From Candidatus Saccharimonadota bacterium (lineage in GTDB: Bacteria > Bacteroidota > Bacteroidia > Cytophagales > Amoebophilaceae): 32,000 bases of DNA. Below the pieces are notes generated by a model, which was not told the DNA's origin, did not search any database, and saw only the letters and a list, made by a program, of their open reading frames with translations. The DNA lies in contig NZ_OZ034918.1 in NCBI RefSeq assembly GCF_964030745.1, positions 210,001-242,000 on the forward strand, given 5' to 3'. Below, one piece after another: positions 551 through 31,012 of the stretch (positions within the stretch are counted from its first letter, which is position 1; each line of letters starts with the position of its first letter). The position numbers and the translations under genes are program-made.

Positions 551-600
551 TGAGCATACTGCCCCACCTTATGACCACCGATAAAGAAATTTGGCACATA
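551..600. repeat. Solo fragment of MITE family C (arm segment)
   Basis: 'cttatgaccaccgataaagaaatttggcac' (568-597) matches the arm 'cttatggccgccgataaaagatttggcac' of the full element at 9543-9753. Confidence 0.5.
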
Positions 601-3309: not shown

Positions 3310-4605
3310 ATGTCTTCCTTGATAGTCTATTGTATCATTGCATGCCTCATTGGCTTCATCATCGGATGGTGCATCGCAACCCTTCTATACAAAGTAGCCA
3401 TTGCAACCCTACAAAATAATATTGTTGGTCTAGAAAAACATGCATCAGAAAACCAAAATCAATTCCATACCTTACAGGAACAACACTTACAAACCAGTAA
3501 AGAATTAGCCACTGCTCTGGCACATAATAGCTATTTAGAAAACAAAATAGCCGAACAAGGACAATCAGTTACACAACTCCAAAGCCAACTCACCATCCAT
3601 TTTAAAAATTTAGCCAATGAACTTTTAGAAGAAAAAAGTAAAAAATTTTCAGATCATAGCCAGCTCCAAATGGAACAATTATTGACGCCACTGAGCGAGA
3701 AAATTAAGACCTTTGCACAACAAGTAACCCAGTATAACCAAGAAAATTTGGAAAGAAATGTGGCTTTACGGACCGAACTCAAACAACTACATGACCTCAA
3801 CCTAAAAATCACACAAGAAGCTGAAGGGCTAACCAAGGCGCTTAAAGGAGATTCAAAATTGCAAGGGGGATGGGGCGAGTTTATTTTAGAAAACATTCTG
3901 GTGCAATCGGGACTGGTTAAAAATAGAGAGTATGTGATTCAACCCTCTATTACAACAGAAGATGGCCAGCGCTTTCAACCAGACGTTATCATTAACCTTC
4001 CCGAAGGCAGAAATATTGTGATTGATGCAAAAGTATCTTTAAATCACTATGAAAAATTTTTTAATAATGCACATACGCCTGAGCGGACTTTTCACCTCAA
4101 GCAACATATTCTCTCTATTAGACGCCATATTAAAACACTCAGCGAGAAACGTTACCAATCGCTCTATAACCTGCAAGGTTTGGATTTTGTTTTAATGTTT
4201 ATACCCATTGAACCAGCCTTTGCACTAGCTGTGCAAGAAGAGGGCATGCTCTTTAACGAAGCCTATGAACGCAATATTGTAATCGTATCTCCTTCCAATT
4301 TAATAGCCACCCTGCGCACCGTTGCAAACTTATGGAAACAAGCCCATCAAAATCAAAATGCTGTAGAAATTGCTAGACAAGGCGGTGCCTTATATGACAA
4401 ATTTGTTGCTTTTACAGAAGATATTAAAAACATAGGACGCCAATTGGATTTAACACAAAAAAACTATTTAGAGGCTACTAAAAAATTATACGATGGAAAA
4501 GGAAGTTTGGTATCCAGAGCACAAAAAATGAAATTATTAGGCGCACGAACCAGTAAGGTGTTGGATCCACAACTCATAGATAAAACGCAACAAGAAGAGG
4601 AATAA
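3310..4605 (+). CDS. rmuC: DNA recombination protein RmuC
   Basis: N-terminal TM helix, a long coiled-coil region, then the RmuC core (GGWGEFILENIL...RFQPDVIINLPEGRNIVIDAKVSL...DFVLMFIPIEPAF...IVIVSPSNLIATLRTV). Confidence 0.9.
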   Translation: MSSLIVYCIIACLIGFIIGWCIATLLYKVAIATLQNNIVGLEKHASENQNQFHTLQEQHLQTSKELATALAHNSYLENKIAEQGQSVTQLQSQLTIHFKNLANELLEEKSKKFSDHSQLQMEQLLTPLSEKIKTFAQQVTQYNQENLERNVALRTELKQLHDLNLKITQEAEGLTKALKGDSKLQGGWGEFILENILVQSGLVKNREYVIQPSITTEDGQRFQPDVIINLPEGRNIVIDAKVSLNHYEKFFNNAHTPERTFHLKQHILSIRRHIKTLSEKRYQSLYNLQGLDFVLMFIPIEPAFALAVQEEGMLFNEAYERNIVIVSPSNLIATLRTVANLWKQAHQNQNAVEIARQGGALYDKFVAFTEDIKNIGRQLDLTQKNYLEATKKLYDGKGSLVSRAQKMKLLGARTSKVLDPQLIDKTQQEEE

Positions 4606-4610
4606 TGTGA

Positions 4611-4939
4611 GTGTCTATTCACGCCTGTGGCTGGGCCCCTTATCTCCTTCGATAAAAAGTCTGGCCCGATAGTAAATAGATGAATCGATATGTTTTTTAG
4701 CGGGAAAATCGTAAACTCAGCCCGCAAGCGGGCTTCAAACAGACGATTTTCTAATCCGCTAAAAAACATATCGCTCAGCTGTTAGTGTTTTACTAGAGCG
4801 CCATTTTTTATCGAAGGAGACGCGGGGCGGGTACTTGGTCAGCTATTTGCTTTTTCAGAAAAACGTAATCACAGTGATGAATGGATACTCACGAAAAGCT
4901 AGAAAAAACGTATTTTCTGCCACAGTGGTGAATAGATAC
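4611..4939. repeat. MITE family A, full copy plus a duplicated terminal module
   Basis: Begins 'gtgtctattcacgcc'. It ends with two tandem terminal modules, 'gtgatgaatggatac' (about 4875-4888) and 'gtggtgaatagatac' (4926-4939), which are the inverse of the left terminus. The interior is a long imperfect palindrome. Its arms are 'ctccttcgataaaaag' / 'ttttttatcgaaggag' and 'agcgggaaaatcg' / 'cgattttctaatccgct', and its central hairpin is gcccgcaagcgggc (4720-4733). It lies between the convergent 3' ends of rmuC and the orphan gene. Confidence 0.8.
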
Positions 4940-4958
4940 TAATGTGATAGAATAAAGT

Positions 4959-6269: not shown

Positions 6270-6457
6270 CAATTTCGTTTTATATGACCTAACATAAATT
6301 GAAACCATTGCAATAGATACAGCTCGCCTCTTTATTAAATTTTTGTTTTCTATCACAATGGCCTTAAGTTATATAAACTAGTATTCGCGAAGTATTTAAG
6401 ATATTAGGCCTATGTTAAGTCCTCAATCCCGCCCAACACCCCAATACCGTACAACCC

Positions 6458-6699
6458 ATGGCGTCAACTTAAGGAATTTGTCTTATTTTTTTACTCAGCA
6501 CTGTGGTTGAAAACGCATTTTTCCCAGTTTTTTAAGGAACTTCATTACACGCCTGTGGCTGGGGCCTCTTATCTCCTTCGATAAAAAGTCTGGCCCGATA
6601 GTAAATAGCTGAACAATAGATTGTTTCATTGCCTTTACTGCGCGCCAAATCTTTTATCGGTGGCCATAAATGCTGCGTATACCAATACTTCATGTAAAA
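6458..6699. repeat. Chimeric MITE: family A half joined to family C half, plus a shared ~90 bp flank module
   Basis: 6549-6612 'cacgcctgtggctggggcctcttatctccttcgataaaaagtctggcccgatagtaaatag' is the family A left half. 6613-6699 is the reverse complement of the family C left arm. The whole block is the reverse complement of 9533-9623 plus 9920-10069, with few mismatches. Confidence 0.8.
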
Positions 6700-6745: not shown

Positions 6746-9487
6746 CTAATCCCTTTGACAAATGCGCACATATGGGCAATAGCGACATATTTCTAAGTCT
6801 TCTGTTTGGGTAAAAGGTATTGCAGGGTTAAATATCTCTAACAGCAGCTCCTTGAGCCCTTCTTGAAATGGTTGTGCATATTCCTGAACATCCTCGATCC
6901 GTTGGTACTGTTTGCCACCATTAGCTTGTTGCATAAAGATACCAGGCGCATAACCCTTCAAAAAAATCTCGCGAATAGAAATCAAGTAAGGCATGATCGG
7001 TTGCTGGTAATCAGCTCCGTGTAGCGACTGAAAAAGCCAAGCATAAAAAAACAGCTGAAAAACAGCTCTGTTTTTTTTAATTTTAGTAGGATCAAACAGG
7101 CTGGTTATACTGGATATTTTGCAATTGGACAATCCTGTTTTATAATCTATAATACGGATCACCTGGTTGTGCCTATCTATACGATCTAATACACCACCAA
7201 GCCAGATCTTTCTCTTGCTATCTAAAACCATGGGGTGTTTGATGGCTACCTCAACACCCAAAAGGGTAAAGGGTCCATCTGCGTCATCTAAGTCCAACAT
7301 ACCGGCTACCAACTTGTCCAGTAGCGCATGGATCAAGATAGGTGTGCTGAACACTGCACCCCGAGCAGCCATAGCTTCTTTTATCCTTGTTTTTATTATT
7401 GATTTAAGCTGTACGACCATCTTTGAATCCACCTGCATCGCTACAAAAGGGCTGTACAACCTGGCCATAACATCATGAAATATTATACCCAACTGGATGG
7501 CATCTGCGCCATCTGTTGCACCAACCTCCTGCTTAAGGCGGAGCAAATAGCTAAAATAAAATTGAAGCGGACAAGACAAATACGTAGTTAACGCAGAAGG
7601 CGTCAGGATGGAAGCAGCTTCCTGGCCGAGAAACCTATCTAATAACTCCATCACTTTACTATCCTTGTCAATAGATATAGCAGCTATTGGCCTTTTGAAC
7701 AACTGCAGGGCATGACATGACTGTGTTATGGTTAACTTACTATCAAAAGTCAATTGTATCAACAGTCGATTCATTTCACCAGAACCATCTAAATGATTTT
7801 TTTGAGCATAATAACAATAAACAACTTGAGCACGCTGCAGCAATCTATAAAAGCCATAAGCAGTTGTATGTTCTGCTACTTTATCTACCAACGGTAACCC
7901 AAAATGATAACACAGACTATAGGGTAAAAAGGAGTCATTACGGGTAAGCTTAGGGAAGCTCCCTTCATTCATATTCAGAAAAAAAATATGTTCAAAATCT
8001 AAGTTATGGGAGTAGGAGACCTCCACAATATAGAGCCCCGTTAAAGCGTTTGCTTGATGGAAGTGCACCTTACTCTGCTTCAAACCATTTAAGAAAAAAG
8101 CAGTGGAACAGTCGGTCATTTCTGCCATTAGCCCCTCTATATAATCCAATAGATGATGCAATGCTGCTTTATTCAGTTCCAAGAACAACTGCTTGGTCTC
8201 CGTAAAATGGGTATAGATATAGGTTAATCCCTTCTGTAAGTAGAGAAGCAGCCCTTCTTGATGGAGCCATAAGCCAAAGGGATCGACTAGCTTACATGCA
8301 TCCAGTGATTGGCGCATAACAGTGATCTCTGCCTGAACCGTCTCTTCCGCAAATGGATGCCATAATGCCAAGAGATTAGCCATATGGCGATATATTTGCT
8401 CACTCCCTGCAACAGAGGCTTCCCAAAGCGCTACCAATTGCTCTACTAAGGTATAGATCACCGTAGCATGGAATGGATAATCCAACCTACAATGGAGCGG
8501 AATAGATAGGTTAGAGAGCTGATCCAATAAAGGGATCAGTAGATCGCTGCCACTTACCACGATTGCAGTTTGACTAGGCAAAAACCTTGGCTTTCCATCA
8601 TCTGTTTTTTCTTCTAAAGCTGCTATCACTGCTTGCACCTGTGCTACCGAAGTAGATGCTTCTATTGCGAAAACCTTTTTATTAGGATCATTCAAATAGG
8701 TACCCATAGGGAAAGTATGGTCAAACCATTTTTTTTCCCTATGCTGACGCAGGTAATGGCCTGCTATATTGACTCCATTATCTAAATAATGGGGATCAAC
8801 ATCCCAGAAAAAAGTAGTCGCCACAGCTGCCTGACATTGCCTTATAAACTGCTCTTGGGCAGGCGTTAGTAAATTAAATCCAATAAAGATTACTTCCTGA
8901 TAGGCATCCATTATTTCCGGTAAAGGTTGGGCCATGCTATGGCATAACCCTTCATACCCTTTACCTTCCGCTATAAGCTTTTCTCTAAAAGCTTGATATA
9001 GCAGGGGCAATTGTTTCCAAAAAACAGGGTCTTCTTTTTGTTGAAATAGTGGTAGCGTTCCAACCTTGAGTTGAGTTACAAATCCATCGCTGGTCAGTTG
9101 CTTGTGCTGCATTAAGGCTGCAAACAACGCAGTTCCATTGACCAGGTGGCTGTCTATCTTATTAAAGTCTTCTAAAAGAGTAGTCCCCCAACTATAAAAT
9201 TGCTCGAAGGATTCCGCTCTATTGAAAATATGCTGCGCTAGTTTATGCAGTCTGCTCAACAAAGCCAAAGTAGGTAGGGGAGCCAGCTTGCTATGCATCA
9301 GCATCCACTCAGGCAAAGTCAAACAATCAGCTTGCTGCGTCCACAAAGTTTGAAAATAATCAATAGACAACCATGTGGGAAATATCAACAGGCGCCTTTT
9401 CTTCAGGCTATTAGACTTATTTAAGTACGCAACAACCTCTGCCAAAAAAGGAGGGTGTTGTATGGTTTTTATTGGATTTGTAAACAT
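6746..9487 (-). CDS. AddB-like PD-(D/E)XK nuclease family protein (RecB-type nuclease domain with Fe-S cysteines)
   Basis: 913 aa. The C-terminal region has the RecB-family nuclease motif GGVLDRIDRH..IRIIDYKTG. Four Cys are arranged as in AddB/Cas4-type Fe-S nucleases (LSCPLQFYF ... CRYCPYVRIC). No Walker A is visible in the N-terminal part. Confidence 0.8.
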   Translation of the reverse strand: MFTNPIKTIQHPPFLAEVVAYLNKSNSLKKRRLLIFPTWLSIDYFQTLWTQQADCLTLPEWMLMHSKLAPLPTLALLSRLHKLAQHIFNRAESFEQFYSWGTTLLEDFNKIDSHLVNGTALFAALMQHKQLTSDGFVTQLKVGTLPLFQQKEDPVFWKQLPLLYQAFREKLIAEGKGYEGLCHSMAQPLPEIMDAYQEVIFIGFNLLTPAQEQFIRQCQAAVATTFFWDVDPHYLDNGVNIAGHYLRQHREKKWFDHTFPMGTYLNDPNKKVFAIEASTSVAQVQAVIAALEEKTDDGKPRFLPSQTAIVVSGSDLLIPLLDQLSNLSIPLHCRLDYPFHATVIYTLVEQLVALWEASVAGSEQIYRHMANLLALWHPFAEETVQAEITVMRQSLDACKLVDPFGLWLHQEGLLLYLQKGLTYIYTHFTETKQLFLELNKAALHHLLDYIEGLMAEMTDCSTAFFLNGLKQSKVHFHQANALTGLYIVEVSYSHNLDFEHIFFLNMNEGSFPKLTRNDSFLPYSLCYHFGLPLVDKVAEHTTAYGFYRLLQRAQVVYCYYAQKNHLDGSGEMNRLLIQLTFDSKLTITQSCHALQLFKRPIAAISIDKDSKVMELLDRFLGQEAASILTPSALTTYLSCPLQFYFSYLLRLKQEVGATDGADAIQLGIIFHDVMARLYSPFVAMQVDSKMVVQLKSIIKTRIKEAMAARGAVFSTPILIHALLDKLVAGMLDLDDADGPFTLLGVEVAIKHPMVLDSKRKIWLGGVLDRIDRHNQVIRIIDYKTGLSNCKISSITSLFDPTKIKKNRAVFQLFFYAWLFQSLHGADYQQPIMPYLISIREIFLKGYAPGIFMQQANGGKQYQRIEDVQEYAQPFQEGLKELLLEIFNPAIPFTQTEDLEICRYCPYVRICQRD

Positions 9488-9542: not shown

Positions 9543-9753
9543 GTATTGGTATACGCAGCACTTATGGCCGCCGATAAAAGATTTGGCACGCAGTAAAGAC
9601 AATGAAACAATCTATTGTTCAGCGGGAAAAACAGAACTTGCCCACTTCGTGGGCTGCAAACAGGCTGTTTTTCTAATCCGCTGAAAAACAGATTGTTTAA
9701 AGACTTCCGCTTTACTGAAGTACCGCATTCCTTTATCGGCGGCCACAATAGAT
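9543..9753. repeat. MITE family C, full copy
   Basis: Long imperfect palindrome. Its arms are 'ggccgccgataaaag' / 'cctttatcggcggcc', 'aaacaatctattgttcagcggg' / 'ccgctgaaaaacagattgttt' and 'agcgggaaaaacag' / 'ctgtttttctaatccgct'. The central hairpin is gcccacttcgtgggc. The left terminus 'gtattggtatacgc' resembles the family A/B termini. Confidence 0.7.
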
Positions 9754-9767
9754 TTTCTTATCATTAT

Positions 9768-9987
9768 CAGCCCCGCGTCTCCTTCGATAAAAAATGGCGC
9801 TCTAGTAAAATACTAACACCTGAGCGATATCTTTTTCAGCGGATTAGAAAATCGTCTGTGTGAAGCCCGCTTGCGGGCTGAGTTCACGATTTTCCCGCTG
9901 AAAAAGATATCGATTCAGCTATTTACTATCGGGCCAGACTTTTTATCGAAGGAGATAAGGGGCCCAAGCCACAGGCGTGTAATGAAG
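9768..9987. repeat. MITE family A copy (reverse orientation, outer arm missing)
   Basis: The sequence 'gccccgcgtctccttcgataaaaaatggcgctctagtaaaa...gaagcccgcttgcgggctgagttcacgattttcccgctgaaaaagatatcgattcagctatttactatcgggccagactttttatcgaaggagataaggggcccaagccacaggcgtg' is the reverse complement of 4620-4830. Confidence 0.85.
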
Positions 9988-10058
9988 TTCCTTAAAAAAC
10001 TAGAAAAAATGCGTTTTCAACCACAATGCTGAGTAAAAAAATAAAATAAATTCCTTAA

Positions 10059-10214
10059 GTTGACGCCATTGGGGGTACAGGTAAGCCTGAGGCTTTAAAA
10101 TACGATTTGTATGGGCAATGGTCCCGAATGATAAATAAAAAAGAAAGGCTTATTTATCAAGGATTAGAAGAAGAAAAAAGAGTTTTGATCTTGTCTGCAC
10201 GAGGGAACTATTGA
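10059..10214 (+). pseudogene. yoeB: 5'-truncated YoeB/Txe-family toxin remnant
   Basis: The frame ending at TGA 10212-10214 reads VDAIGGTGKPEALKYDLYGQWSRMINKKERLIYQGLEEEKRVLILSARGNY*. This is colinear with the C-terminal half of E. coli YoeB (..[40 protein letters not shown]). The first ~40 codons and any start codon are missing, and an in-frame stop sits at 10056-10058. The terminal HY is NY here. Confidence 0.7.
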
Positions 10215-13383: not shown

Positions 13384-15861
13384 ATGTACTTCAATAAGTC
13401 ACTGATAATGGATGGAGGGCTTGCTTCTGCATGGGGTGAGGATGGCATAGGCGGCATGGTAGAGTTGATTGTCTCTGACGAAAAAGAACAACCCTCTGAT
13501 TGCACCACCCGAGTACCCCTATTGGCGCTTCGCAATACAGTCCTATTTCCCAATGTAGTTGTACCCATTACCGTTAAGGAACGGCAAGCCATGCACTTGA
13601 TAGAAGCCATACATGAAAGAGATGGCCTATTAGGCATCGTTGCACAACGCAATCCAGAAACCTTTGAAGGCAAGCAAACAGACATTTATAAAATAGGCAC
13701 ACTGGCCAAAATTATTAAAATCATCAGTTTGCCAAATGGTAGAACGATTGCTTTGGTGCATGGCAAGCAAAGATTTCAAACGATTCAACTCTTTACAGAG
13801 CCATCTGGGCTAGAAGCTACCATTCAACTTCTCAAAGACCAACCCTATAAAGAGGATAAAAGGGTGCTGGCGCTTATGCAATCTCTAAAAGATGTTGCCA
13901 TTAAAATCCTCAAATTTCGATCTGATCTTTCTAGTGAAGCACAAACGGTACTCACCAGCATTAAAAGCCTAGACTTTCTTACCTATTTTTTAGCTTCTAA
14001 TTTAAACACCGACATCCACTACAAGCAAAAGCTACTAGAATCCAACAATAGCACCAAACGTGCCAACCTACTTTTAAAGCACCTGCTTAGGGAATTAGAG
14101 ATTTCAGAGCTTAAAAAAGAGATTCAGGACAAAGTACATTCTGATATTAGTCAACAGCAACGGGATTATTACTTAAGGCAGCAGGTTAAAGTACTACAAG
14201 ATGAACTAGGCGAAAATGACCTTTCTGATGAAATCGATCTATTGCGTGAAAAAGGCAATAAAAAACAATGGCCTAAAGAAGTAGCCGATTACTTTAAAAA
14301 AGCATTGGAAAAAGCGGAGCGGATCAGCCCACATAGTCCAGATTATTCGATTAGCATCAACCATGCAGAGCTGCTGGTAGACCTTCCTTGGGAAAGCTAT
14401 ACCAAAGATAACCTAGACTTGAACCGAGCTAAAAAGATTTTCGATGCAGATCATTATGGTATTGAAAAAGTAAAAGAACGTCTTTTAGAGTATTTAGCTG
14501 TTTTACAGCTAAAAAAAGACATGAAAGGGCCTATTTTATGTTTATGTGGTCCTCCTGGAGTTGGTAAAACCTCTTTAGGCAAGTCTATTGCAAAAGCAAT
14601 GGGTAGAAAATATGCCCGCATTGCACTAGGTGGGTTAAATGATGAGGCTGAGATACGTGGTCATAGAAAGACCTATATTGGCGCCATGCCTGGTAAAATC
14701 ATCTATAACATTCAGAAGAGTGGTACCTCCAATCCTGTTATTGTATTAGATGAAATAGATAAAATAGATGGCATGCGTGGAGATCCAGCATCTGCCCTAC
14801 TAGAAGTACTCGATCCAGAGCAAAACAATGCTTTTGTAGACAACTTTTTAGAAGTACCCTATGATCTTTCTAATATTTTGTTTATAGCCACTGCCAATGC
14901 TATGGACCGCATTCCAGCTGCTTTACAGGACAGAATGGAGGTCATTGACGTAAGTGGTTATCTTTTAGAAGAAAAGATAGAGATTGCTAAAAAGTATCTT
15001 TTCCCCAAGCAAAGAAAAGAGCATGGCCTTAAAGCCACTGATCTGGCTATACAAGATGATGCCTTGGCTACTGTTATAGCAAGTTATACCCGTGAATCTG
15101 GTGTACGTGAGCTATCGCGTCAATTGGCCAATATTTGTAGAAAGACAGCTAAATCCATTGCTTTAGGGGAAAGTTATACGAAAAAAATCAAACAATCAGA
15201 TGTGCTGGCTTTACTAGGTCCAGAACCATTTGACCAGACGCCTTACCAAACCACACCCCTTCCGGGTGTTTCCGTTGGCTTGGCATGGACAGCAGCTGGC
15301 GGTGAAATTCTTTTTATAGAATCTGTTTTAAGTAAAGGGAAAGGCAGGGTGAATTTATCTGGCCACTTAGGAGAAGTGATGAAAGAATCTGCCATGACTG
15401 CCCTTTCTTATCTAAAGGCCAATGACCAATACCTGGACATATCGCATGGGGTCTTTGAAAATTATGATTTACACATTCACATTCCCTCTGGCGCAGTACC
15501 AAAGGATGGTCCTTCTGCAGGGATTACCCTCTTTACCTCACTGGCCTCTCTCTATACGCAAAAAAAGGTAAAAGACGCTTTGGCCATGACAGGAGAGATT
15601 ACCTTACGTGGAGAAGTGCTACCAGTAGGCGGTATCAAAGAGAAAATTTTAGCTGCAAAACGTGTGGGCATGAAAGAGATTATACTCAGCAGCAAAAACA
15701 AAAAAGATGTACAAGAGATCAAAGCAATTTACCGTGAAAATTTAATATTTCACTATGTAGATTCTGTAGATCAGGTCTATCGCTTGGCACTACAAGAAGA
15801 CAAAATAGCTAATGCAAAGGTTTGGGATGGTAGTGTGGCTGAAAGTAGCATAGGGAAGTAA
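13384..15861 (+). CDS. lon: Lon protease (endopeptidase La)
   Basis: Lon N-domain ([20 protein letters not shown]), Walker [16 protein letters not shown], Walker [11 protein letters not shown], and a protease domain with [15 protein letters not shown] and [12 protein letters not shown]. The true start may be the ATG at 13456 (MVELIV...) or 13408. Confidence 0.95.
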
Positions 15862-15922: not shown

Positions 15923-15992
15923 TAGTATTCTATACACGCCTGTGGCTGGGCCCCTTATCTCCTTCGATAAAAAGTCTGGCCCGATATAGATA
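15923..15992. repeat. MITE family A left half
   Basis: 'gtattctatacacgcctgtggctgggccccttatctccttcgataaaaagtctggcccgata' matches 4611-4672. It is truncated where the family B element begins. Confidence 0.75.
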
Positions 15993-16255
15993 GTATCTAT
16001 TCACGTCACTGGTTAATAATGAATTGTATTCCACTTTTTTCTTGATAAAAAAGTGGCCAAAAAATCAAGCCCTCGGCAAAAAGTTCCGGAACCCACCCCT
16101 TACAGATGGAAAAACAGAAGTCGCCCGCTGCGCGGGCTTCAAAGGAATCTGTTTTTCCCAATCATCTGCAAGGGGTGGCTTCTATTTCGAAACTTTTTAC
16201 AGGGGCATTGTATCACTTGCTATAATAAGGGAAAATAACAGTGGTGATTACCATA
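15993..16255. repeat. MITE family B copy
   Basis: Begins 'gtatctattcacgtcactggttaataatgaattgtattccacttttttcttgataaaaaagtgg'. The central hairpin is gcccgctgcgcgggc. It is near-identical to 25369-25600, and the right end is diverged ('aacagtggtgattaccatat'). Confidence 0.8.
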
Positions 16256-16382
16256 TAGAAGATAAAATGATTAACTTAGCGCTTATGCTGCTTGCTGGCC
16301 CTACTGCGGCAATAAAACGATTGCTTCGCTACTTTTTTATCAAGCAAAAAGTAGCCTATCAATGCCTTACTTGAAAAACTGA

Positions 16383-17976: not shown

Positions 17977-20232
17977 ATGGTCATCACAATGGAACCAGCT
18001 ATGCAGCCAGCCTATCTTGATGGGCTTAATGAAATGCAAAAAAAAGCGGTCATCCATACAGAAGGGCCATCAATTGTTGTGGCAGGTGCTGGCTCAGGCA
18101 AAACCAAAGTACTAACCGCCAGAATAGCCCATCTCCTTAAAGAAAAAAAAGCAACAGCTGATCAGATCCTTGCTTTAACCTTTACCAATAAGGCGGCTGG
18201 TGAAATGCGCCACCGTATAACCGACATAGTGGGCAATGAGGCCAAGGCAATATGGCTGGGCACTTTTCATAGTGTCTTTATGAAATTATTGCGGCGAGAA
18301 GCCAGCAGCTTGGGCTATCCCTCCCATTTTAGTGTTTACGACACAGATGATAGCAAATCACTCATCAAACAAATCACGAAAGCATTGGAGCTTGACGATA
18401 AGGTATATAAGCCAGGAGTGGTATTGGGGCGTATTTCTCATGCTAAAAATAGGTTGATCACGCCAGAGGCTTACGCAGCAGACCCAACCTATCAAAAGGA
18501 AGATAGCTATATGCGTATGCCAAGATTCAGTGAGATCTTTTTAAGATATGCCCGCCACTGTGTACAAGCTGGTGCAATGGATTTTGATGATTTACTCGTA
18601 CAAACCTATAAGTTGTTAAATGACCACCCTGCATTAAGTACAAAATACCAAGAACAATTTCGTTATCTATTGATTGATGAGTTTCAAGATACCAATTTGG
18701 TGCAATACCGTATTGCCAAAAAACTAGCGGCCCACCATCAGAATATCTGCGTAGTAGGAGATGATGCACAAAGCATTTATGCATTCAGAGGTGCAGATAT
18801 TCATAACATTCTGCATTTTGCTCATGACTACCCCAACCACCAAATGATCAAACTGGAACAAAACTACCGTTCTACAGGGCATATTGTAGATGTGGCCAAC
18901 CGTATCATTAGCCACAATGAAACGCAGCTCAAAAAAAAGGTTTGGACAGCCAATCCGCTAGGAGAACCGGTTCAAGTGTTCAGGGCCATGTCAGATATGG
19001 AGGAGAGTCGATTGGTAGTAGATAAAATGGTGGCAGAAAAACTAACAGCCCAATTACGCTATCGAGACTTTGCGATTCTATACCGTACCAATAACCAATC
19101 TCGTAATTTTGAAGAGGCATTACGTAAAAAAAACATTCCTTACCGCATCATAGGCGGCCTCTCTTTCTATCAACGAAAAGAGGTAAAAGACCTTTTAGCC
19201 TATTTGCGTTTTGTCGTAAACCATAATGATACAGAAGCTTTTAGAAGGATTATTAATTTCCCCAAACGGGGCATTGGACCCACTACTATTGAAAAAATAT
19301 TTTCTACTGCAGCCGAAAAAGCATGCCCCCTATGGTCGGTACTGCATCACCCGAATGATTTTTTAAGCGGCGCTGCTGCCACCGCTGTCTCCCGTTTTGT
19401 GACACTCATTGATACGGCTACTCTAAAACTAGCCAACGAAAATGCTTATACTATAGCCGCCTATATGGCCAAAGCATCTGGCCTGCTCAAGGAATTGCAT
19501 GAAGATAAAACGGTAGAAGGACTAACCCGCTATGAGCATATCCAAGAGCTGCTCAATAGCATCAAACAATTTGTAGACGATCCTGAAAATAATGATCCAA
19601 GCCTAGGTAGTTTTTTACAAGAAATCGCATTGCTGACCAGTGCAGATAAGAATGATCCAAATGAAGATGCAGTGACACTCATGACCATTCATGCTTCTAA
19701 AGGCTTAGAATTCAAATATGTATATCTTGTAGGCATGGAAGAAGAGCTCTTTCCCTCTGCTATGATGTTGGGCAGCAAAGCAGACTTAGAAGAAGAAAGG
19801 CGTCTCTTTTACGTAGCGGTTACCCGTGCACAACGCAAGTTAACCCTATCTCACGCGCTCAGCAGGTACCGATTTGGAAAATTAACCAACGTTCAGCCTA
19901 GTCGTTTTTTAAAAGAAATGGGAGGATATACAACCACTAAAACAACCGCTAAAACTTTTCTATCTGCTGCCCAGCCGATCCAAAAGCATAGAGCAAAGCC
20001 AAGCAGCTCTGTTAGACCACTTTCGAAACCTACTTCAGTTCATCAGCCTGCTACTGATCTAACTGCCCTACAAGTTGGCCACTCGGTGGCGCACCACCAC
20101 TTCGGTATAGGAAAAGTTTTGAAGTTAGTAGAAACTGAAGGTATGCGTAAAGCCATTATTCTTTTTCATAAATTTGGAGAAAAGACCCTCTTGCTAAACT
20201 ATGCAAAGTTAGAAATCTTATCTTCAACATAG
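17977..20232 (+). CDS. UvrD/PcrA/Rep-type ATP-dependent DNA helicase
   Basis: LNEMQKKAV, Walker A AGAGSGKT, LTFTNKAAGEM, DEFQDTN, GDDAQSIYAFRGA, LEQNYRS, TIHASKGLEF, and VAVTRAQ. Alternative starts are at 17989 and 18001. Confidence 0.9.
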   Translation: MVITMEPAMQPAYLDGLNEMQKKAVIHTEGPSIVVAGAGSGKTKVLTARIAHLLKEKKATADQILALTFTNKAAGEMRHRITDIVGNEAKAIWLGTFHSVFMKLLRREASSLGYPSHFSVYDTDDSKSLIKQITKALELDDKVYKPGVVLGRISHAKNRLITPEAYAADPTYQKEDSYMRMPRFSEIFLRYARHCVQAGAMDFDDLLVQTYKLLNDHPALSTKYQEQFRYLLIDEFQDTNLVQYRIAKKLAAHHQNICVVGDDAQSIYAFRGADIHNILHFAHDYPNHQMIKLEQNYRSTGHIVDVANRIISHNETQLKKKVWTANPLGEPVQVFRAMSDMEESRLVVDKMVAEKLTAQLRYRDFAILYRTNNQSRNFEEALRKKNIPYRIIGGLSFYQRKEVKDLLAYLRFVVNHNDTEAFRRIINFPKRGIGPTTIEKIFSTAAEKACPLWSVLHHPNDFLSGAAATAVSRFVTLIDTATLKLANENAYTIAAYMAKASGLLKELHEDKTVEGLTRYEHIQELLNSIKQFVDDPENNDPSLGSFLQEIALLTSADKNDPNEDAVTLMTIHASKGLEFKYVYLVGMEEELFPSAMMLGSKADLEEERRLFYVAVTRAQRKLTLSHALSRYRFGKLTNVQPSRFLKEMGGYTTTKTTAKTFLSAAQPIQKHRAKPSSSVRPLSKPTSVHQPATDLTALQVGHSVAHHHFGIGKVLKLVETEGMRKAIILFHKFGEKTLLLNYAKLEILSST

Positions 20233-20276
20233 AAGCTAACCAATATATATTTTATTAAATAACCCAATCACCCAAA

Positions 20277-20873
20277 ATGTACGACTATAATACAATTCGA
20301 TCGCCCTTAATGCTTAAAGAATATGGCAGAAACATACAAAAGCTTATGGAACAGCTTGCAACCATTGAAGACAAAGCCATTCGCACACAAAAAGCCTATG
20401 GTATTGTAAAGCTCATGGAAGTGGTCAATCCCAATGCTACATCACCACAAAAACGGTGGGATGATCTTTTCATACTATCGGACTACAAACTAGATATTGA
20501 TAGCCCTAACCCCAAACCTGCTAAGCGAGAAAATAGCCAACAGCAGTATGTACATATGCCCTTTATGCAGCTGATCAGATACAAATATTACGGAAGACAT
20601 ATGGAATCACTCCTCAAAAAAATAACTACCCTACCCACACTTAAAGAGCAAGAACAGCTGCTTATAGCAGTTGGGAAACTCATGCGTCGCTTTAGTAGCA
20701 CATGGAACAACGATTATATCAATAATGAAAGAATCATGCAAGACATCAAGCGAATGCTACCAGATGGTACAAGACTTGATGTAGAAATCATACGCACCCT
20801 GCCCGATGAAGGAGCAAATGGTCAAAAAGCTAGAAACAAACATTACCTAAAATCAAATAACAATAAAAAGTAG
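20277..20873 (+). CDS. DUF4290-like conserved hypothetical protein
   Basis: The N-terminus MYDYNTIRSPLMLKEYGRNIQKLMEQL, the size (~200 aa) and the position directly upstream of murA match my recollection of the Bacteroidota DUF4290 gene. The assignment is from memory of that family only. Confidence 0.6.
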   Translation: MYDYNTIRSPLMLKEYGRNIQKLMEQLATIEDKAIRTQKAYGIVKLMEVVNPNATSPQKRWDDLFILSDYKLDIDSPNPKPAKRENSQQQYVHMPFMQLIRYKYYGRHMESLLKKITTLPTLKEQEQLLIAVGKLMRRFSSTWNNDYINNERIMQDIKRMLPDGTRLDVEIIRTLPDEGANGQKARNKHYLKSNNNKK

Positions 20874-22378: not shown

Positions 22379-25270
22379 ATGCAAATCGATTTAGTAATTG
22401 TAAGTTTATTCTTAGTATTAAACATCCTGATTGGTCTTTACCACGCTAAAGGCATCAAAACATTTAGGGACTATGCACTAGGCAATGAGTTGTCTACCTT
22501 TGTTATTGTTTGTTCCTTGGTCGCCAGCGTGGCGCATGTAGGCGTTTTAGGTGACATATCTGACTACTATTTTCTTGGCTTTAAAGACCTAGTAGCTTTC
22601 CTAATCCTTTTCTTAGCAACCTATTTGGGGGCCAGAGTACTCATAGTGCGTATGGCTGAGTTTTTAGGAGATTTTTCCATAGCGGAGTCTATTGGTAAGC
22701 TATATGGTCCCATAGTACGTAAAATCACAGCCGCTACCGTGGTGCTGGTTATGTTGGGTTTGGTCGTAGCACAACTTAAGGCTGTACTAGGAATTGTTCA
22801 TTTTACACTTTCAGATATGAAAGAAGACCTTACCCAGTGGCTTCCTATTGCTACAGGATTGGTGGTTATTCTATATGCAGCATTTGGTGGGGCCAGATCA
22901 ATTGCTATGACCGACGTTTTTCAATTTCTCTGTTTTGGGTGTACATTCCCTTTAATTGCTTTTTTATTACTGCGCTATGCTAAAATATCTCTTGCAGAGG
23001 GATGGACAGGCTTGAAACAACTCACACAGTTTACCGACTATAGGTATATATTTTCAACCCAATCACTAAAAGAATATTTCTTCTATGGGATTCGTGTATT
23101 ATTAGTTATTCTTGCGCCACTGTATATACAAAGACTATATATTTCCACATCGATGCCGAAAGCTAAAAAAGTCTTTACTAGTGGAGCGATCACACTTTTT
23201 TGTATCAGCCTATTGGTATTATGCATAGCCATCGCGTTGCATCTAGGGGGACATACCTTAAAAGGCAAACAAGATGTAATTAATTATCTAATTAACCTGA
23301 CCCAAATTCCAGGTATAAAAGCGATCATAATGATTACAGTCCTTGCCCTACTTATGTCCACGATTGACTCTGCTTTACATTTGTTATCAGTTGTTTTTGT
23401 CCATGATTTATTACCAACAACATCTTTTCAAGGAGCAAATGCATCCATTAAAAAGTTGAAAGCAGGTAGAATAGCCATTCTGCTGATTGGCATACTAGCC
23501 TTATATAGTGCACTAGCTTACAAGGGCAACATTTATAAACTTATCGCCAAAGGAACGGAAATATACATACCTGTTGTAAGCATTCCGTGGACCATGGCTA
23601 TTTTAGGCTTTAGACCCCACAGAACAGTTGTACTCATAGCTATGACTATCTCTGGCTGTTTTGTATTATACTCAAGATTTGTCCACACTTATACCTACCA
23701 CCAAGCCAATGTAAACCTAGCCATTGCTATGATGATTAGCTTTTGTACGCTTATTTTTGGCCATTATCTACTCCCAAAACATCCCAATACCGGCTGGATA
23801 GGGATCAAAGACCGTAGTCCGCTAGAGCTACAAAACCAGGAAACCAAGCGCTGGTGGTTAAGGTGTATAGCAGAATGTAAGGCTTTATCAACTAAAAAAT
23901 ATTGGGAAAGCCTTTTTCCAAAGCAGCATACTACTTTTATATCGCTGGGTATCTACTTAATCAGTAGTACATTTGTAGCCTTGTGGTGTATGGAGAAATC
24001 ATATTTTTTTACTTATAGCTATTGGTATATAGCTGTAATGGCTATTGGGACCCTCTTAGCCATTTATCCAGCTTTGCACTCCTATAAACCAGGAGGCAAC
24101 TCCATGCTACATAGTATATGGCCTGGGCTGTTATGGCTATTACTTTTTATTTCCTCAATACAGTTTGCAAAACTGGGTCACTTTAGCCCTATGGTTTGCG
24201 CACTGGTCATCACCAGCATAGGGCTGGGTATTGTCCTCTTATCATTCAAAATAGGAATTGGCATGCTGGTGCTAACCATACTGGTACATCGTCAATACAT
24301 CCCCCCTCATATTCCTTTTTGGCATCTATTTTGGTCCTATTATAACGAAATTTCTATAGAAATCATTTTTGCTGTAGCTACTGGAGTAGCCGCATTGATA
24401 GGCTTTAGCCTGTATACATGCCTACGTAATAGAGCAAATGTAAAACTTGGCGTTATAGCACTAGCTCGAAGCTACGAGCGCAAAGCAGCCCTAGAATCTA
24501 TCTATAGCCAAGTGAACTGGTCTAGGCTAGACCCTACCTATGGCAGCGAAATGTTACAAACCATTGGTGAAGCACTCAAAGCACCTTGTCAATACCTCTA
24601 TGCACAAGGGCAACAAAAGCTTGGAGACGATGTCAACAGCTTTATACAAAAACTCAGTGAATTCAGCAGCCTATTGCTACAAAGCGCCAAAGAAGCGTAC
24701 AGCCTAAAGCTTAATAAGCAGGCTATCCAACCAGTAGCCATTGAACCTATTATCTTAAAAGTACATAGTACCATTGGTACATTAGGGGAACCTATGCAAC
24801 TACTCTTGCGCAACCAAACAGAGGCAAAACAGTTGATAACAGATCCAGAGCTGTTTGAACGTTTTTTAACTATAAACTTATTGGCAACCAGTAAGAGTGA
24901 ACAAGCTACAGATCATATAGTTACCTTAACAATTATGGATACCATGCTCCGCTACCGTGATGCAAACGCTATACAAACGGACCAGCAAACCACTACCCTA
25001 CCTGCATTGGCCTTTTTTATCAGCACAGATACTAGCATACAACATGCACAGCCAATATATGATAGCACAGATGAAGCCACACTTGTTTACCTACCCAAAA
25101 CAGAACAACAGCTCTATCAAGCAGAAAGTAGACAAATTGTGCGGGCGCATGGTGGTTATATTGAAGTCATAGAAAATAAAGAGTACTTAACCGCTCTTTA
25201 CATATTACCTATAGCTGGGGAAACAGTCATGCATTTTAAAACTTATGACCCTACTGATCTAACTCAATAG
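22379..25270 (+). CDS. Multi-domain membrane protein, paralog 1: SSF (sodium:solute symporter)-like domain, second TM block, degenerate histidine-kinase-like C-terminal module
   Basis: 963 aa. Nucleotides 22379 to about 23775 show an SSF-like TM pattern, including YAAFGGARSIAMTDVFQF. A further ~5-6 hydrophobic helices span about 23900-24430. The cytoplasmic tail (24470-25250) has HK-like spacing (see findings). It is colinear with 27057-29880. Confidence 0.85.
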   Translation: MQIDLVIVSLFLVLNILIGLYHAKGIKTFRDYALGNELSTFVIVCSLVASVAHVGVLGDISDYYFLGFKDLVAFLILFLATYLGARVLIVRMAEFLGDFSIAESIGKLYGPIVRKITAATVVLVMLGLVVAQLKAVLGIVHFTLSDMKEDLTQWLPIATGLVVILYAAFGGARSIAMTDVFQFLCFGCTFPLIAFLLLRYAKISLAEGWTGLKQLTQFTDYRYIFSTQSLKEYFFYGIRVLLVILAPLYIQRLYISTSMPKAKKVFTSGAITLFCISLLVLCIAIALHLGGHTLKGKQDVINYLINLTQIPGIKAIIMITVLALLMSTIDSALHLLSVVFVHDLLPTTSFQGANASIKKLKAGRIAILLIGILALYSALAYKGNIYKLIAKGTEIYIPVVSIPWTMAILGFRPHRTVVLIAMTISGCFVLYSRFVHTYTYHQANVNLAIAMMISFCTLIFGHYLLPKHPNTGWIGIKDRSPLELQNQETKRWWLRCIAECKALSTKKYWESLFPKQHTTFISLGIYLISSTFVALWCMEKSYFFTYSYWYIAVMAIGTLLAIYPALHSYKPGGNSMLHSIWPGLLWLLLFISSIQFAKLGHFSPMVCALVITSIGLGIVLLSFKIGIGMLVLTILVHRQYIPPHIPFWHLFWSYYNEISIEIIFAVATGVAALIGFSLYTCLRNRANVKLGVIALARSYERKAALESIYSQVNWSRLDPTYGSEMLQTIGEALKAPCQYLYAQGQQKLGDDVNSFIQKLSEFSSLLLQSAKEAYSLKLNKQAIQPVAIEPIILKVHSTIGTLGEPMQLLLRNQTEAKQLITDPELFERFLTINLLATSKSEQATDHIVTLTIMDTMLRYRDANAIQTDQQTTTLPALAFFISTDTSIQHAQPIYDSTDEATLVYLPKTEQQLYQAESRQIVRAHGGYIEVIENKEYLTALYILPIAGETVMHFKTYDPTDLTQ

Positions 25271-25368
25271 AGCCAGCACCGCTACAAACCCAACCAAGCC
25301 AATTTGCTACGCATCGCATCTTCAAGAACATACCCCCCTACCGCTACTTTTTTATAGCAGAGAGATTT

Positions 25369-25618
25369 TGTATCTATTCACGTCACTGGTTAATAATGAA
25401 TTGTATTCCACTTTTTTCTTGATAAAAAAGTGGACAAAAAATCAAGCCCTCGGCAAAAAGTTCCGGAACCCACCCCTTACAGATGGAAAAACAGAAGTCG
25501 CCCGCTGCGCGGGCTTCAAAGGAATCTGTTTTTCCCAATCATCTGCAAGGGGTGGCTTCTATTTCGAAACTTTTTACAGGGGCATTTTATCACTATGGCC
25601 ATAGTGTTGAACAGATAC
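25369..25618. repeat. MITE family B, complete reference copy (250 bp)
   Basis: Termini are 'gtatctattcac' (25369-) and 'gttgaacagatac' (-25618), which are inverted. The hairpin ccactttttt/aaaaaagtgg lies at 25408-25433 and the central hairpin gcccgctgcgcgggc at 25500-25514. The flanking arms are 'ccccttacagatggaaaaacaga' / 'tctgtttttcccaatcatctgcaagggg'. Confidence 0.85.
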
Positions 25619-25693
25619 GAGATTTTTTTATAGTGCTGCTAGTCAAGTAAATAAATAAGAGTTAATAATTTTATTTTCAAAAAAAATAAAAAT

Positions 25694-27002
25694 TTGAGGC
25701 CGTTGTGATAGGTTGAAGGTATAATTTTGATTAATCTTCCAGGGTTATTTCCTTGCCATATTTGATGTTATAGTGGTATAAAACTATTTATTTACTGATT
25801 TTTTAGTCATTTTCAATCTATTTTGGACACACCATTCCCCTAGATACCTCTTAATATGATGTTTGGGGACCTATATAAGTTATAGGCTATTGCCTCCATA
25901 ACATGTTGCGTATGGGTTTTAGCAAGGCCTATATATCTGGCTCCTGAGCTACGGAACCAACTTTTAATACTTCCAAATACCCGTTCTACTTTATAGCGCG
26001 TTTTAGATACTAATTTATTAAACCGTTTAGCAGTGGGTGATAAAGGATTGTTTCTAGCCCCTTTTTTCTGAATAGCTGATTTTAACTTCTTTTTCTTTAG
26101 TAAATTTTCGTTGGGCGACCCGCTATAGCCTTTATCTGCATAGAGTCTGCTGCCTGATTTTAGCCTTACTTTATCCAATAATACCTGTAAATGCCCACTA
26201 TCATGACTAGATGCTTTTGTGGTACCTACGGCTAGCACCAACCCCTCTTTGCTTTCCACAAGAACATGCCGCTTATAGCCATAGTAGAGATGATGGCCTT
26301 TTTTTATCCAACTTGCTTCTGGATCTACTCCTTTTTGATAACTTTCAGCTGTGGTTATGGTTCCATCTTCATGCAGATCGTAGCTTTTTTTACCTTTAGG
26401 GCGTCTAGGGGTAGGGGTAATAGAAGCATCTACAGCTGCTGAACCGTTTTGAACCAATACACCATGATCAGATAGCTGATTATTAATGATATGCAATAAC
26501 TTTTCTAAAGCATTCTTCTCTGTAAGGGTAGTTCTAAATCTACTTAGTACACTATGATCTGGAACAGAACTATCCATCGAAATACCACAAAATCTGCTAA
26601 AAGTGATACGATCATTCACTTCTTCTTCGACTGCATAGTCGCTCAAGCCATACCACGTCTGTAGCAATAGCATTTTGAATAGAAGCAGAGGACTATAGGC
26701 CGGTTTGCCTGATAAACGTAAACCTTTAGGATAATGTAATCGGAGTGCTTTTTCTACTACTGACCAATTAACTAGCTTGTTGATTTGATCAAAGAAAGTG
26801 TGTTTGCACTTACGCTTATTGGCGGAAATATCTGAAAAACTTAATTGCTTAGTTTGCTTGAGCGACATACACAATATTATTAAAAGTTTTAAGCATCAAT
26901 ACCTAAAAAAATCAATAGAATTTAACCTTTTTTTACCTTCTTCTAAAAAATAAAAAGATACTTTTTATGGCAAATCGTAAAGGTCTATTGCAACGGCCTC
27001 AA
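25694..27002 (-). mobile_element. IS5-family insertion sequence (~1.3 kb)
   Basis: The terminal inverted repeats are 'ttgaggccgttgtgatag' (25694-25711) and, as the reverse complement of 26985-27002, 'ttgaggccgttgcaatag'. They are 16/18 identical and bracket a single DDE transposase ORF. I could not define a target-site duplication in the A/T-rich flanks. Confidence 0.8.
25840..26874 (-). CDS. IS5-family DDE transposase
   Basis: 344 aa. An N-terminal InsH-like region (SPLLLFKMLLLQTWYGLSDYAVEEEVNDRITFSRFCGI) is followed by the DDE candidates AAVDASI, LYADKGYSG and KTRYKVERVFGSIK. Confidence 0.9.
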   Translation of the reverse strand: MCMSLKQTKQLSFSDISANKRKCKHTFFDQINKLVNWSVVEKALRLHYPKGLRLSGKPAYSPLLLFKMLLLQTWYGLSDYAVEEEVNDRITFSRFCGISMDSSVPDHSVLSRFRTTLTEKNALEKLLHIINNQLSDHGVLVQNGSAAVDASITPTPRRPKGKKSYDLHEDGTITTAESYQKGVDPEASWIKKGHHLYYGYKRHVLVESKEGLVLAVGTTKASSHDSGHLQVLLDKVRLKSGSRLYADKGYSGSPNENLLKKKKLKSAIQKKGARNNPLSPTAKRFNKLVSKTRYKVERVFGSIKSWFRSSGARYIGLAKTHTQHVMEAIAYNLYRSPNIILRGI

Positions 27003-27056
27003 TTTATTGCTTATTTCATTATACTATACAAAAAATGTGGATTTAAAAAAATCAAT

Positions 27057-30000: not shown

Positions 30001-30497
30001 TTAAAAACGCCCACGGGCTGGTAACACGTAAATCTGGTGCACCTTACTATACCCATCCTATGGCAGTTGCCAAAATACTATTAGAAGTTACAAAAGATCC
30101 TACAACCCTCTTAGCAGGCTTGTTACACGACATAGTAGAAGACACACCAATTCCATTGGCCCAAATAGAGCTGATGTATGGTCCTGAGGTGGCCTATATT
30201 GTAGATATGGTGACCCACTACCATACCAGTGGTTATCGATGGAAATTAGATGACATAGAAAACAAAAGTCTATTGGAGCAATGTAAAGATATTCGTGTAG
30301 TACAGGTTAAGCTAGCCGATAGACTACACAATATCAGAACCTTACATTTTCGCAAACCAGCAGATCAAAAAAGAATTGCAAAAGAGACCATGGCATTTTA
30401 TATCCCATGGGCTAAAAAAAATAAAATTTTAAACTGGATAACCGAAATGAATGATATTTGCTGGGAAATTTTAAATAAGAAAGGAACAAAGTGGTGA
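27057..30497 (+). CDS. Multi-domain membrane protein, paralog 2: SSF-like domain, second TM block, degenerate HK-like module, and C-terminal RelA/SpoT-type HD (p)ppGpp hydrolase domain
   Basis: The track ORF begins at 26967, but its first 30 codons lie inside the IS right end. The ATG at 27057 (MHIDLVIIGIFLILTLAIGLY) aligns with the paralog 1 start (MQIDLVIVSLFLVLNILIGLY). The HD domain at about 29960-30440 reads YYTHPMAVAKILLE...LLAGLLHDIVEDT...VQVKLADRLHNIRTL...IAKETMAFYIPWA. Confidence 0.85.
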   Translation: MHIDLVIIGIFLILTLAIGLYCSKGIATFQDYAVGNRKMGQFIIAISIIATIYGGRSLLALDDFYQESIYKTLDLIYFIILALVSRCILLRMKAFAGHFSIAESMGSLYGPTVRVITAIFGILLSIAMLAPQFKVSLSITNTLWPDIEGISANSGIILALLVISYTTLGGARAVALTDIYQFFLFGVCFPIMIFICLYYAKKPLASWQQLAELPQLATKEALRLHKLLQDGLYACVYGLCHPFFPAWIQRFYMSSSIQQASKGFYISTFIQVILTIVCLSIVMALHVGNHPIPSNGHVINYLVNLVHFPGIRGIFITAIIALLMSTADSYLHIASVLFTNDVLPVLSGSTQWVKQHALKIARTASTLIGIVSSFMMFSINYFIEFRNYIISCYPALVVPFIMAILGFRPRSTAIVLTIGMNIAIIAYHFFYKITLSAPFHKSFYFSTIALIITHYLLPKRPNTGWVGIKDLSPLDLANQETKRWWLRRLQDGKLPFTKAYWQSRFPKRKSTFILLGIYFIIHTFIALCFMQKSYFAPYIYWYILVMAFGTTLAIYPSFHSYQQGGHPILYLAWPVLLFLFLFVSSIQFAKLDYFRPMVFALLIASLTLGSVLASLKIAIGMLVLAMILHLFVPPHIPFWHSIWTNYNTLSIELVFATALLVAALIGFGAYKYLHDKMDTQFKIIALNRNYERKAALEAIYNQVNWSRLHPIYSSKMLRETEAILQAPCYYFHTHGQRKLEIDLNLFMKKLRKFSNVLLKRVKEERILTLHQKAVQPVDINLAILKAHHTTRALGEPIALLLRNQTKVTHLIADPSLFERLLTINLLGISKSEQITDHIVTLTIADTVLRYDTTLTLPALAFLISTNTSIHNVAHTYDVTGETLHTHLPKTEHQLYQAESGQIVQAHGGYDLIIEQQEALTCCYVLPIAGQNVMRFKTYDPTALGNKTSETAESLAQEKELIASLATETALTKEIIEKTITFIKNAHGLVTRKSGAPYYTHPMAVAKILLEVTKDPTTLLAGLLHDIVEDTPIPLAQIELMYGPEVAYIVDMVTHYHTSGYRWKLDDIENKSLLEQCKDIRVVQVKLADRLHNIRTLHFRKPADQKRIAKETMAFYIPWAKKNKILNWITEMNDICWEILNKKGTKW

Positions 30498-31002: not shown

Positions 31003-31012
31003 TGTATCTGCT

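Follow-up and report, generated by a model that had tools for sequence, protein, structure and literature searches.

Hairpin-shaped repeats in a Cardinium endosymbiont are very probably recently mobile MITEs with inverted ends and 8-bp target-site duplications

We analysed a 32-kb stretch of bacterial DNA, hereafter termed the window. Since its Lon protein is 92% identical to the Lon proteins of Cardinium cEper1 and of the Cardinium MAG of Tyrophagus putrescentiae (cTPut), the window is assigned to a Cardinium endosymbiont (Bacteroidota, Amoebophilaceae). Looking up the exact sequence of this Lon protein gave no record. Cardinium lives as an endosymbiont in insects and mites. The window has a G+C content of approximately 40% and contains a number of housekeeping genes, which code for a LysS-type tRNA synthetase, RmuC, an AddB-like nuclease, an AAA+ ATPase, an M50 protease, Lon, MiaB, UvrD, MurA and others. 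Two large genes (22379-25270 and 26967-30497) are paralogous and share the repeats D3, D8 and D9, which have 71-81% DNA identity between them. The second gene encodes a sodium:solute symporter domain and an HD domain. An IS5-family IS is found at 25693-27000. It resembles ISCca3/ISCca7, shows 84-89% protein identity to other Cardinium copies and has the terminal inverted repeat (TIR) GAGGCCGTTGYRATAG. The adjoining 1176-aa ORF has its ATG at 26967, 18 nt upstream of the right-hand repeat of the IS5 element (26985-27000). This repeat falls within the first codons of the ORF, whose true start is therefore doubtful.

Repeats together with two solo IS ends occupy the intergenic regions 4611-4939, 6456-6699, 9543-10071, 15929-16255, 25370-25618 and 31004-32000. 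Copies were located by repeat finding and by blastn of each element against the window. In total the window contains at least 12 copies or fragments of what is described below as a single superfamily, which make up approximately 8-9% of its length; the census is based on this one 32-kb window and on scattered loci of other Cardinium. The features, including the target-site duplications (TSDs), are as follows.

560-600, forward strand: left-arm fragment of family C (…CCGATAAAGAAATTTGGCAC…), recognised by eye in comparison with the left arm of C1; too short for the blastn E-value cut-off
4603-4610, no strand: left copy of TSD TAATGTGA, which includes the RmuC stop codon (8/8 identity with 4940-4947)
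4611-4939, forward strand: element A1, an A core plus a 52-nt D-type right-end module, with the outer termini GTGTCTATTCAC… and …GTGAATAGATAC
4611-4887, forward strand: core of A1, with its own right terminus …GATGAATGGATAC
4888-4939, forward strand: D-type right-end module of A1, 52 nt
4940-4947, no strand: right copy of TSD TAATGTGA
6456-6478, forward strand: solo end of an IS4-family IS (CC|ATGGCGTCAACTTAAGG, reading inwards), not a MITE but physically linked to the MITE cluster
6479-6699, no strand: three-piece mosaic in which a degenerate D-type terminus (TACTCAGCACTGTGG…) is joined to the left halves of A and C
6540-6613, forward strand: A left half in the mosaic (blastn)
6608-6699, reverse strand: C left half in the mosaic (blastn match 6608-6688)
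9543-9765, forward strand: element C1, left terminus GTATTGGTATACGC; its right end adjoins A2
9768-9987, reverse strand: element A2, with a degenerate left terminus (CTTCATTACACGCCTGTGG); the far right end is absent
9995-10040, reverse strand: degenerate D-type right-end module, 78% identical to A1 positions 284-324
10049-10071, reverse strand: second solo end of the IS4-family IS, inside the remnant of a YoeB-like toxin gene
15929-15993, forward strand: A left half (A positions 4-69), truncated at the start of B1
15993-16255, forward strand: element B1, its right end degenerate; 225 nt align to B2 with 99% identity
16319-16352, reverse strand: solo A/T-rich hairpin (GCTACTTTTTTATCAAGCAAAAAGTAGC), which resembles the sub-hairpin at B positions 38-64
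25362-25369, no strand: left copy of TSD GAGATTTT
25370-25618, forward strand: element B2, complete, 249 bp, termini GTATCTATTCACGTCACTGG and (right end, reverse complement) GTATCTGTTCAACACTATGG
25619-25626, no strand: right copy of TSD GAGATTTT
31004-31045, forward strand: left part of mini element D, the outermost layer of a nest, with a TSD copy TGATAAAG at its end (31038-31045)
31046-31094, forward strand: left part of B4 (B positions 1-49), with a TSD copy CTTTTTTC at its end (31087-31094)
31095-31344, forward strand: element B3, complete, which together with A3 forms the innermost inserted unit (31095-31605)
31345-31605, reverse strand: element A3, left terminus GTATCCATTCACGCC at 31605, without right terminus
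31606-31813, forward strand: right part of B4 (B position 42 to end), which opens with a TSD copy CTTTTTTC
31814-31863, forward strand: TSD copy TGATAAAG (31814-31821), followed by the right part of mini element D (31822-31863), which ends …CACAGTGCTGAACGGACAC
31865-32000, reverse strand: element A4, truncated by the end of the window

The repeats fall into at least four subfamilies, namely A (~260-280 bp), B (~250 bp), C (~220 bp) and a mini form D (~85 bp), and pairwise identity among copies reaches 95-99%. An earlier note on this DNA had listed copies of the families A, B and C. All of them were recovered, and several fragments could be added, including two more left-end fragments of family B that were detected by blastn (31012-31044 and 31046-31094). 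The copies lie where it had placed them, except that the last A copy begins at around 31865 and not at 31891. Moreover, the element at 4611-4939, which had been assigned to family A as a whole, consists of an A core (4611-4887), whereas its last 52 nt are a module of the fourth, mini family D. The copies had also been described as intergenic throughout. This holds relative to every ORF with Pfam support, but the fragment at 31004-31045 overlaps the nominal GTG start of an AsnC-type ORF.

An inverted duplication (6438-6699 versus 9543-10095) encloses the AddB-like nuclease gene (6746-9487). It is composed of halves of C and A, a D-type end and an IS4 end. The left copy of this duplication is devoid of the segment from C position 81 to A2 position 147. 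The arrangement suggests a repeat-mediated inversion or recombination.

A multiple alignment of 14 copies reveals conserved blocks over the full length of the elements. Their order, starting at the left end, is YGATAAAA, AG..GGAAAA.C, the GC clamp, GGGCTTCAAA, TGTTTTTC..AATC and TTTTAC. In blastn comparisons the identity is 73-75% between A and C (~130 nt) and 80% between B and C (a 50-nt core). Because the homology spans the whole length, A, B and C are, judged by their sequences, one diverged superfamily and not mere fold-alikes. Thus, the claim that the interiors of the families differ was only partly right, and the idea that the fold rather than the sequence has been conserved is not supported.

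We then considered how the elements spread. Complete copies begin with GTATCTATTCAC… or GTGTCTATTCAC… and end with the inverse, and both of their ends carry a TIR of ~20 bp, GTATCYRTTCAS-N4-5-TGG. Related inverted termini, as claimed previously, are found on all families. Perfect 8-bp TSDs were detected in five cases: TAATGTGA (A1), GAGATTTT (B2), CTTTTTTC (B3+A3 inside B4), TGATAAAG (B4 inside D) and CAAACTGA (the copy on plasmid CP101109.1). For a random span of the window, flanks that match at 8/8 positions have an empirical probability of 3e-5. Insertion involves a staggered 8-bp cut. The region 31004-31863 is a nest of insertions in which each layer has its own duplication. In the inner layer, B3+A3 (31095-31605) lies within B4 (31046-31094 plus 31606-31813), with CTTTTTTC on both sides; in the outer layer, B4 lies within the 85-bp mini element D (31004-31045 plus 31822-31863), with TGATAAAG on both sides. 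The proposal that these are non-autonomous elements with one type of terminus is thus backed by the five perfect duplications, which it had suggested looking for, and by the nested insertions.

The target sites are A/T-rich, and two of the five are in an A/T hairpin, CCACTTTTTTCTTGATAAAAAAGTGG, that is borne by B and D copies. Insertions into the A/T hairpins of other copies have produced the layers seen at the right-hand end of the window. An A/T-rich hairpin (ACTTTTTT-loop-AAAAAAGT) is also found repeatedly on its own in intergenic DNA, at 16319-16352 of the window and at 4760-4790, 13510-13540, 19227-19252 and 20706-20738 of the cTPut locus L014. It has the same design as the sub-hairpin of B and serves as an insertion site. 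It could be either MITE debris or a native signal.

The empty state is seen in the more distant Cardinium GCA_028766965.1, in which Lon and MiaB are separated by 24 bp, compared to 521 bp of A and B sequence in the window. The elements are 85-330 bp in length and contain no transposase gene, and the ORFs inside them have no Pfam match. Furthermore, B1 and B2 are 99% identical and the duplications are intact, which argues that the elements were recently active in this strain. At several copies in other strains recognisable TSDs were missing, which fits with these copies being old or rearranged. We also tested whether a pair of MITEs that flanks a symporter-HD gene in cTPut (L010 3384-7923) behaves as a composite transposon and found no matching duplication. 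In summary, the repeats are very probably recently mobile MITEs of Cardinium, which are characterised by inverted ends, 8-bp TSDs and a hairpin that is kept by paired mutations. A DDE-type transposase, supplied in trans, would bind the MITE termini.

The superfamily is present in five other Cardinium assemblies, with related copies that have ~80% identity to B. Such copies were detected in two cTPut assemblies (Tyrophagus). A search of a plasmid collection gave one match, a related copy on plasmid p_A (CP101109.1) of the Cardinium of Dermatophagoides farinae (cDF), which is flanked by TSD CAAACTGA and has no annotation beneath it. In cOegib (Oedothorax) decayed copies are found beside tRNA genes, and a terminus profile identified diverged mini forms in C. 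hertigii GCA_003788695.1 and in the Logan Cardinium assembly from SRR29524965. No copies were detected in the DNA examined from cEper1 (22 kb), GCA_028766965.1 (22 kb) and the 52-kb plasmid pcBtQ1 (50 kb). Scanning 185,579 reference genomes, which did not include the source genome, for the terminus pattern recovered only two true matches, both in Cardinium sp. TP. The single match to the conserved core in a scan of JGI metagenomes had occurred by chance.

Some features of these loci are of note. The decayed copies in cOegib OW441264.1 are at 13412-13577, 19009-19243 and 19416-20369 of locus L021, and one mini copy is split by an insertion of ISCca2. Cardinium has several copies of the symporter-HD family, which in the D. 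farinae strain is carried on a plasmid; in the window, in cTPut L010 and in cDF CP101109.1 a B-type MITE lies just downstream of a family member. Genes of the Rpn family (PDDEXK_2 / transposase_31) are frequent in these Cardinium loci (L014 12608-13495, with 13510-13808; L020 14690-15613; L016 7187-8134). In cTPut such a gene is found directly upstream of a solo hairpin and a B-type MITE.

Each family had been predicted to form a long imperfect hairpin with a GC-rich apical clamp. Indeed, the folds of the three subfamilies are far more stable than those of shuffled sequences, with z-scores of -8.1, -9.1 and -8.2 (DNA parameters), and none of the 200 shuffles was as good. The clamps are as quoted; they form small GC hairpins at the 5' side of the apical loop, which is asymmetric. 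To assess covariation, seven B-type copies of three strains were aligned; their consensus structure has 77 pairs, with 90.7% of the cells being paired. Compensatory substitutions are found between copies. Sixteen of the 77 stem pairs are changed on both sides, compared to 5.9 +/- 1.7 in column shuffles, of which 0/500 reach 16. In slid controls, in which the partners were shifted by 1-3 columns, the number is 3-5. When the subfamilies are compared, compensation is seen at 8 of 21 apical pairs, and one pair of the clamp occurs as G-C, C-G or A-U. Since copies within a subfamily go back to master copies, they do not count as independent support for a selected fold. Taken as a whole, the element forms an imperfect palindrome whose GC clamp is off-centre, and compensatory substitutions preserve the pairing of the palindrome in different strains and subfamilies. 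Since these changes exceed both the shuffled and the slid controls, the hairpin is actively maintained. It may be retained because it has a role, be it in transposition or as a DNA or RNA structure tolerated or used by the host, or it may be kept by arm-to-arm copying within the palindrome. The earlier suggestion of selection on structure is plausible, in that compensatory stem changes are enriched, but covariation in a DNA palindrome is by itself no proof of selection.

Palindromes can copy a change from one arm to the other by template switching or conversion. The observed covariation could in this way arise without selection, if the arms of these long DNA palindromes are homogenised by intra-strand template switching or conversion. 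This explanation is plausible, although somewhat short of probable. It would account for the fact that pairing is retained along the entire 100-bp arms, rather than in one functional module, and that G.T and A.C mismatches are both common. However, simple copying would tend to erase asymmetry, whereas the off-centre clamp in its asymmetric loop is conserved across subfamilies.

We judge it unlikely that the elements act first of all as structured units with a function, for example as bidirectional terminators, small RNAs or mRNA-stabilising hairpins, in which the fold is selected and mobility is secondary. The compensatory changes that retain the stems would be expected for such units. Moreover, in three genomes a symporter-HD paralogue is followed, 60-230 bp downstream, by a B-like copy. 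The clamp of B and the T-rich tail behind it receive a terminator-like score on the reverse strand, and with RNA parameters the reverse strands of B and C fold 10-20 kcal/mol better than the forward strands and have more G.U pairs. However, in the three cases mentioned the terminator-like strand is not the one that is read from the upstream gene. Family A, in addition, shows no strand asymmetry, and where the asymmetry exists it was inherited from the master copies of the subfamilies and thus counts as a single observation. The predicted terminator-like score may give a faint hint of a terminator role. There is no match to an Rfam family: in the window no hit was at or above the gathering threshold. 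Finally, TSDs, nesting and near-identical copies show that the elements spread by transposition.

Which transposase might mobilise these MITEs? The earlier note had placed it outside the window. In agreement with this, the transposase of the IS5-family IS is the only transposase gene there, and its TIR differs, as had been stated, from the MITE ends. The IS5 copy was rejected as the parent because its termini, GAGGCCGTTG…, are unlike those of the MITEs. An autonomous element with superfamily termini was found neither in the window nor in ~300 kb of related Cardinium DNA. Of special interest was an IS4-family IS, related to ISCca13, which in cTPut encodes a 406-aa transposase. This IS, which has the ends CAATGGCGTCAACTTAAGG, repeatedly adjoins the 13-nt MITE terminus. 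Copies or ends of it are at the following positions.

Window 6456-6478, forward strand
Window 10049-10071, reverse strand
C. hertigii locus L022: 9407-11333, 14236, 14626, 15894 and 17072
cTPut locus L014: 3310-4747

At the second of the window sites the 3' remnant of the yoeB-like toxin gene (10062-10214, forward strand) matches PF06769 with E = 5e-12. Its 5' part has been removed by the IS4-type end, and no antitoxin gene adjoins it.

We probably deal with an invader. The flanks of the IS4-family IS and of its metagenomic relatives suggest that it makes duplications of ~10 bp and prefers the motif nnYGWWCAnn. As the tip of the MITEs contains this motif, the IS would repeatedly enter MITE ends. 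IS copies that are capped by MITE termini could then have arisen from hits in both ends of one MITE, followed by recombination between the two ISs.

Initially we favoured the opposite relation, on the basis of a perfect 32-nt inverted repeat on one L022 copy. The MITEs would be deletion derivatives of the IS4-family IS and mobilised by it, with a terminal repeat of 32 nt, GTATCCGTTCACT-CAATGGCGTCAACTTAAGG, the tip of which is the MITE terminus. Four IS ends in L022 indeed have the 13-nt MITE terminus directly outside CAATGG, and a full-length cTPut copy has decayed caps at both of its ends. In a profile search with the 13-nt MITE terminus the IS ends rank 12th-13th of 502,244 positions, and the right terminus of B matches the IS end at 18/22 positions with one gap. 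Moreover, solo IS ends are inside two MITE clusters of the window, and the transposase matches the IS4 family model NF033592 (187.6 bits, cut-off 115). Yet several observations led us to downgrade this idea, which we now find unlikely. Metagenomic relatives of the IS end with CAATGG…CCATTG and have 10-nt direct repeats, AGTGTTCAGG, on their flanks; a duplication of this length differs from the 8-bp TSD of the MITEs. Two L022 IS ends are followed by TCCGTTCACT and a B-like MITE without its first 3 nt, as an insertion with a 10-bp TSD into the MITE terminus would leave. The cOegib copy has no MITE cap, and one solo end in the window was inserted in the YoeB-like gene and not in a MITE. Finally, the IS and the MITEs share no internal homology beyond the tip, and the inner 19 nt of the IS end are absent from the MITEs. 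On balance, an IS that invades MITE ends is the favoured reading.

Other candidates were also considered. IS6/IS26-family elements have termini of the type GGTTCTGTYGC… and 8-bp TSDs. In ISCca2, a member of the IS6 family, only the 8-bp TSD agrees with the MITEs; its ends, GGYTCTGTCGCRTCT (from pcBtQ1 and cOegib), do not resemble those of the MITEs and have no match in the window. A tblastn search with the IS26 transposase did not detect an IS6 gene in the Cardinium loci gathered at that time. ISCca4/MITECca01 of the IS982 family was rejected as well, as its ends are unrelated and absent from the window. IS256- and IS66-family elements also make 8-bp TSDs. Elements of both families are listed for cOegib (PMC9769881); Cardinium members are ISCca9/10 (IS256 type) and ISCca16 (IS66 type).

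A combination of the above ideas would be a two-layer system of parasites. Here the clamp-bearing foldback would be selected as an RNA or DNA signal of Cardinium, such as a terminator or a transcript-stabilising hairpin, and the MITE termini would provide a landing pad for the IS4-family IS (nnYGWWCAnn, 10-bp duplication), with double hits and recombination producing capped ISs. This scenario is speculative and, in our estimation, improbable. Should the foldback nevertheless be selected as a signal, it could be used in a genome that is poor in canonical terminators.

The A/B/C/D superfamily appears not to have been described before, although it represents an ordinary kind of element, a MITE, and no new kind. 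A full-text literature search for the terminal sequences found nothing relevant. Such elements are not mentioned in the 2025 review on Cardinium, the curated cOegib genome was reported with MITECca01/02 only (PMC9769881), and the cTPut paper applies the term MITE to transposase fragments and not to elements of the superfamily. Cardinium genomes are hard to annotate owing to their repeats. Annotating the superfamily would correct gene calls, as spurious ORFs lie inside the elements, would explain local rearrangements and intergenic expansion, and would provide markers for strain typing. Moreover, the superfamily is a tractable case of hairpin-shaped MITEs that are kept either by selection or by palindrome mechanics.

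How does the superfamily compare to known elements? REP/BIME, ERIC and Rickettsia palindromic elements (RPEs) are families without the combination of TIRs and TSDs; REPs measure 20-40 nt and are moved by RAYT, and RPEs are found in frame in genes. The earlier note had likened the repeats to REP/BIME and RPEs, and they are indeed palindromic, mostly intergenic and arranged in mosaic clusters. However, this likeness is superficial and fails on the defining features, so that spread by a tyrosine (RAYT / IS200-IS605-type) transposase, or without classical transposition, is hardly credible for elements that have ~20-bp TIRs and fixed 8-bp TSDs, are with 220-330 bp much longer than REPs, are not inserted in frame in genes and have no RAYT-like gene in the window.

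Its other comparison, with Correia elements, was the correct one: a Correia-type or IS-derived MITE is the proper analogy. The Correia elements (CREE) of Neisseria and IS-derived MITEs are likewise short, non-autonomous and intergenic, have TIRs and a fixed TSD, occur in length variants and give rise to RNA that can form hairpins. Correia elements duplicate TA, measure 100-155 bp and have a 26-bp TIR. The superfamily differs from them in its 8-bp TSD, its length of 220-330 bp and its architecture, a foldback that spans the full element and has a GC clamp.

The ISCca13-like IS4 element resembles the MITEs in that several copies have the 13-nt MITE tip directly outside their ends and that it occurs in the same genomes and clusters, but it is distinguished by its inner end CAATGGCGTCAACTTAAGG, which is not found in the MITEs, and by its duplications of ~10 nt instead of 8 nt. 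The elements closest in setting are MITECca01/02, which come from the same genus and are ~240 bp in length, non-coding, intergenic and multi-copy. Their ends, however, are ACGTGAATTCGGGATT / ACCTGAGTTCGGGATT and derive from the IS982-family ISCca4 (PMC9769881 supplement), in contrast to GTATCYRTTCAS in the superfamily, and their inverted repeat has no match in the window at ≤ 3 mismatches. MITECca01, the only MITE so far published for Cardinium and described as the first in a maternally inherited endosymbiont, was reported to be confined to cOegib (PMC9769881). Elements of the MITECca type and of the superfamily are both found in the cOegib locus L021. Thus, unlike MITECca01, which was reported from one strain, the superfamily is present in several strains, including cOegib, and on a plasmid.
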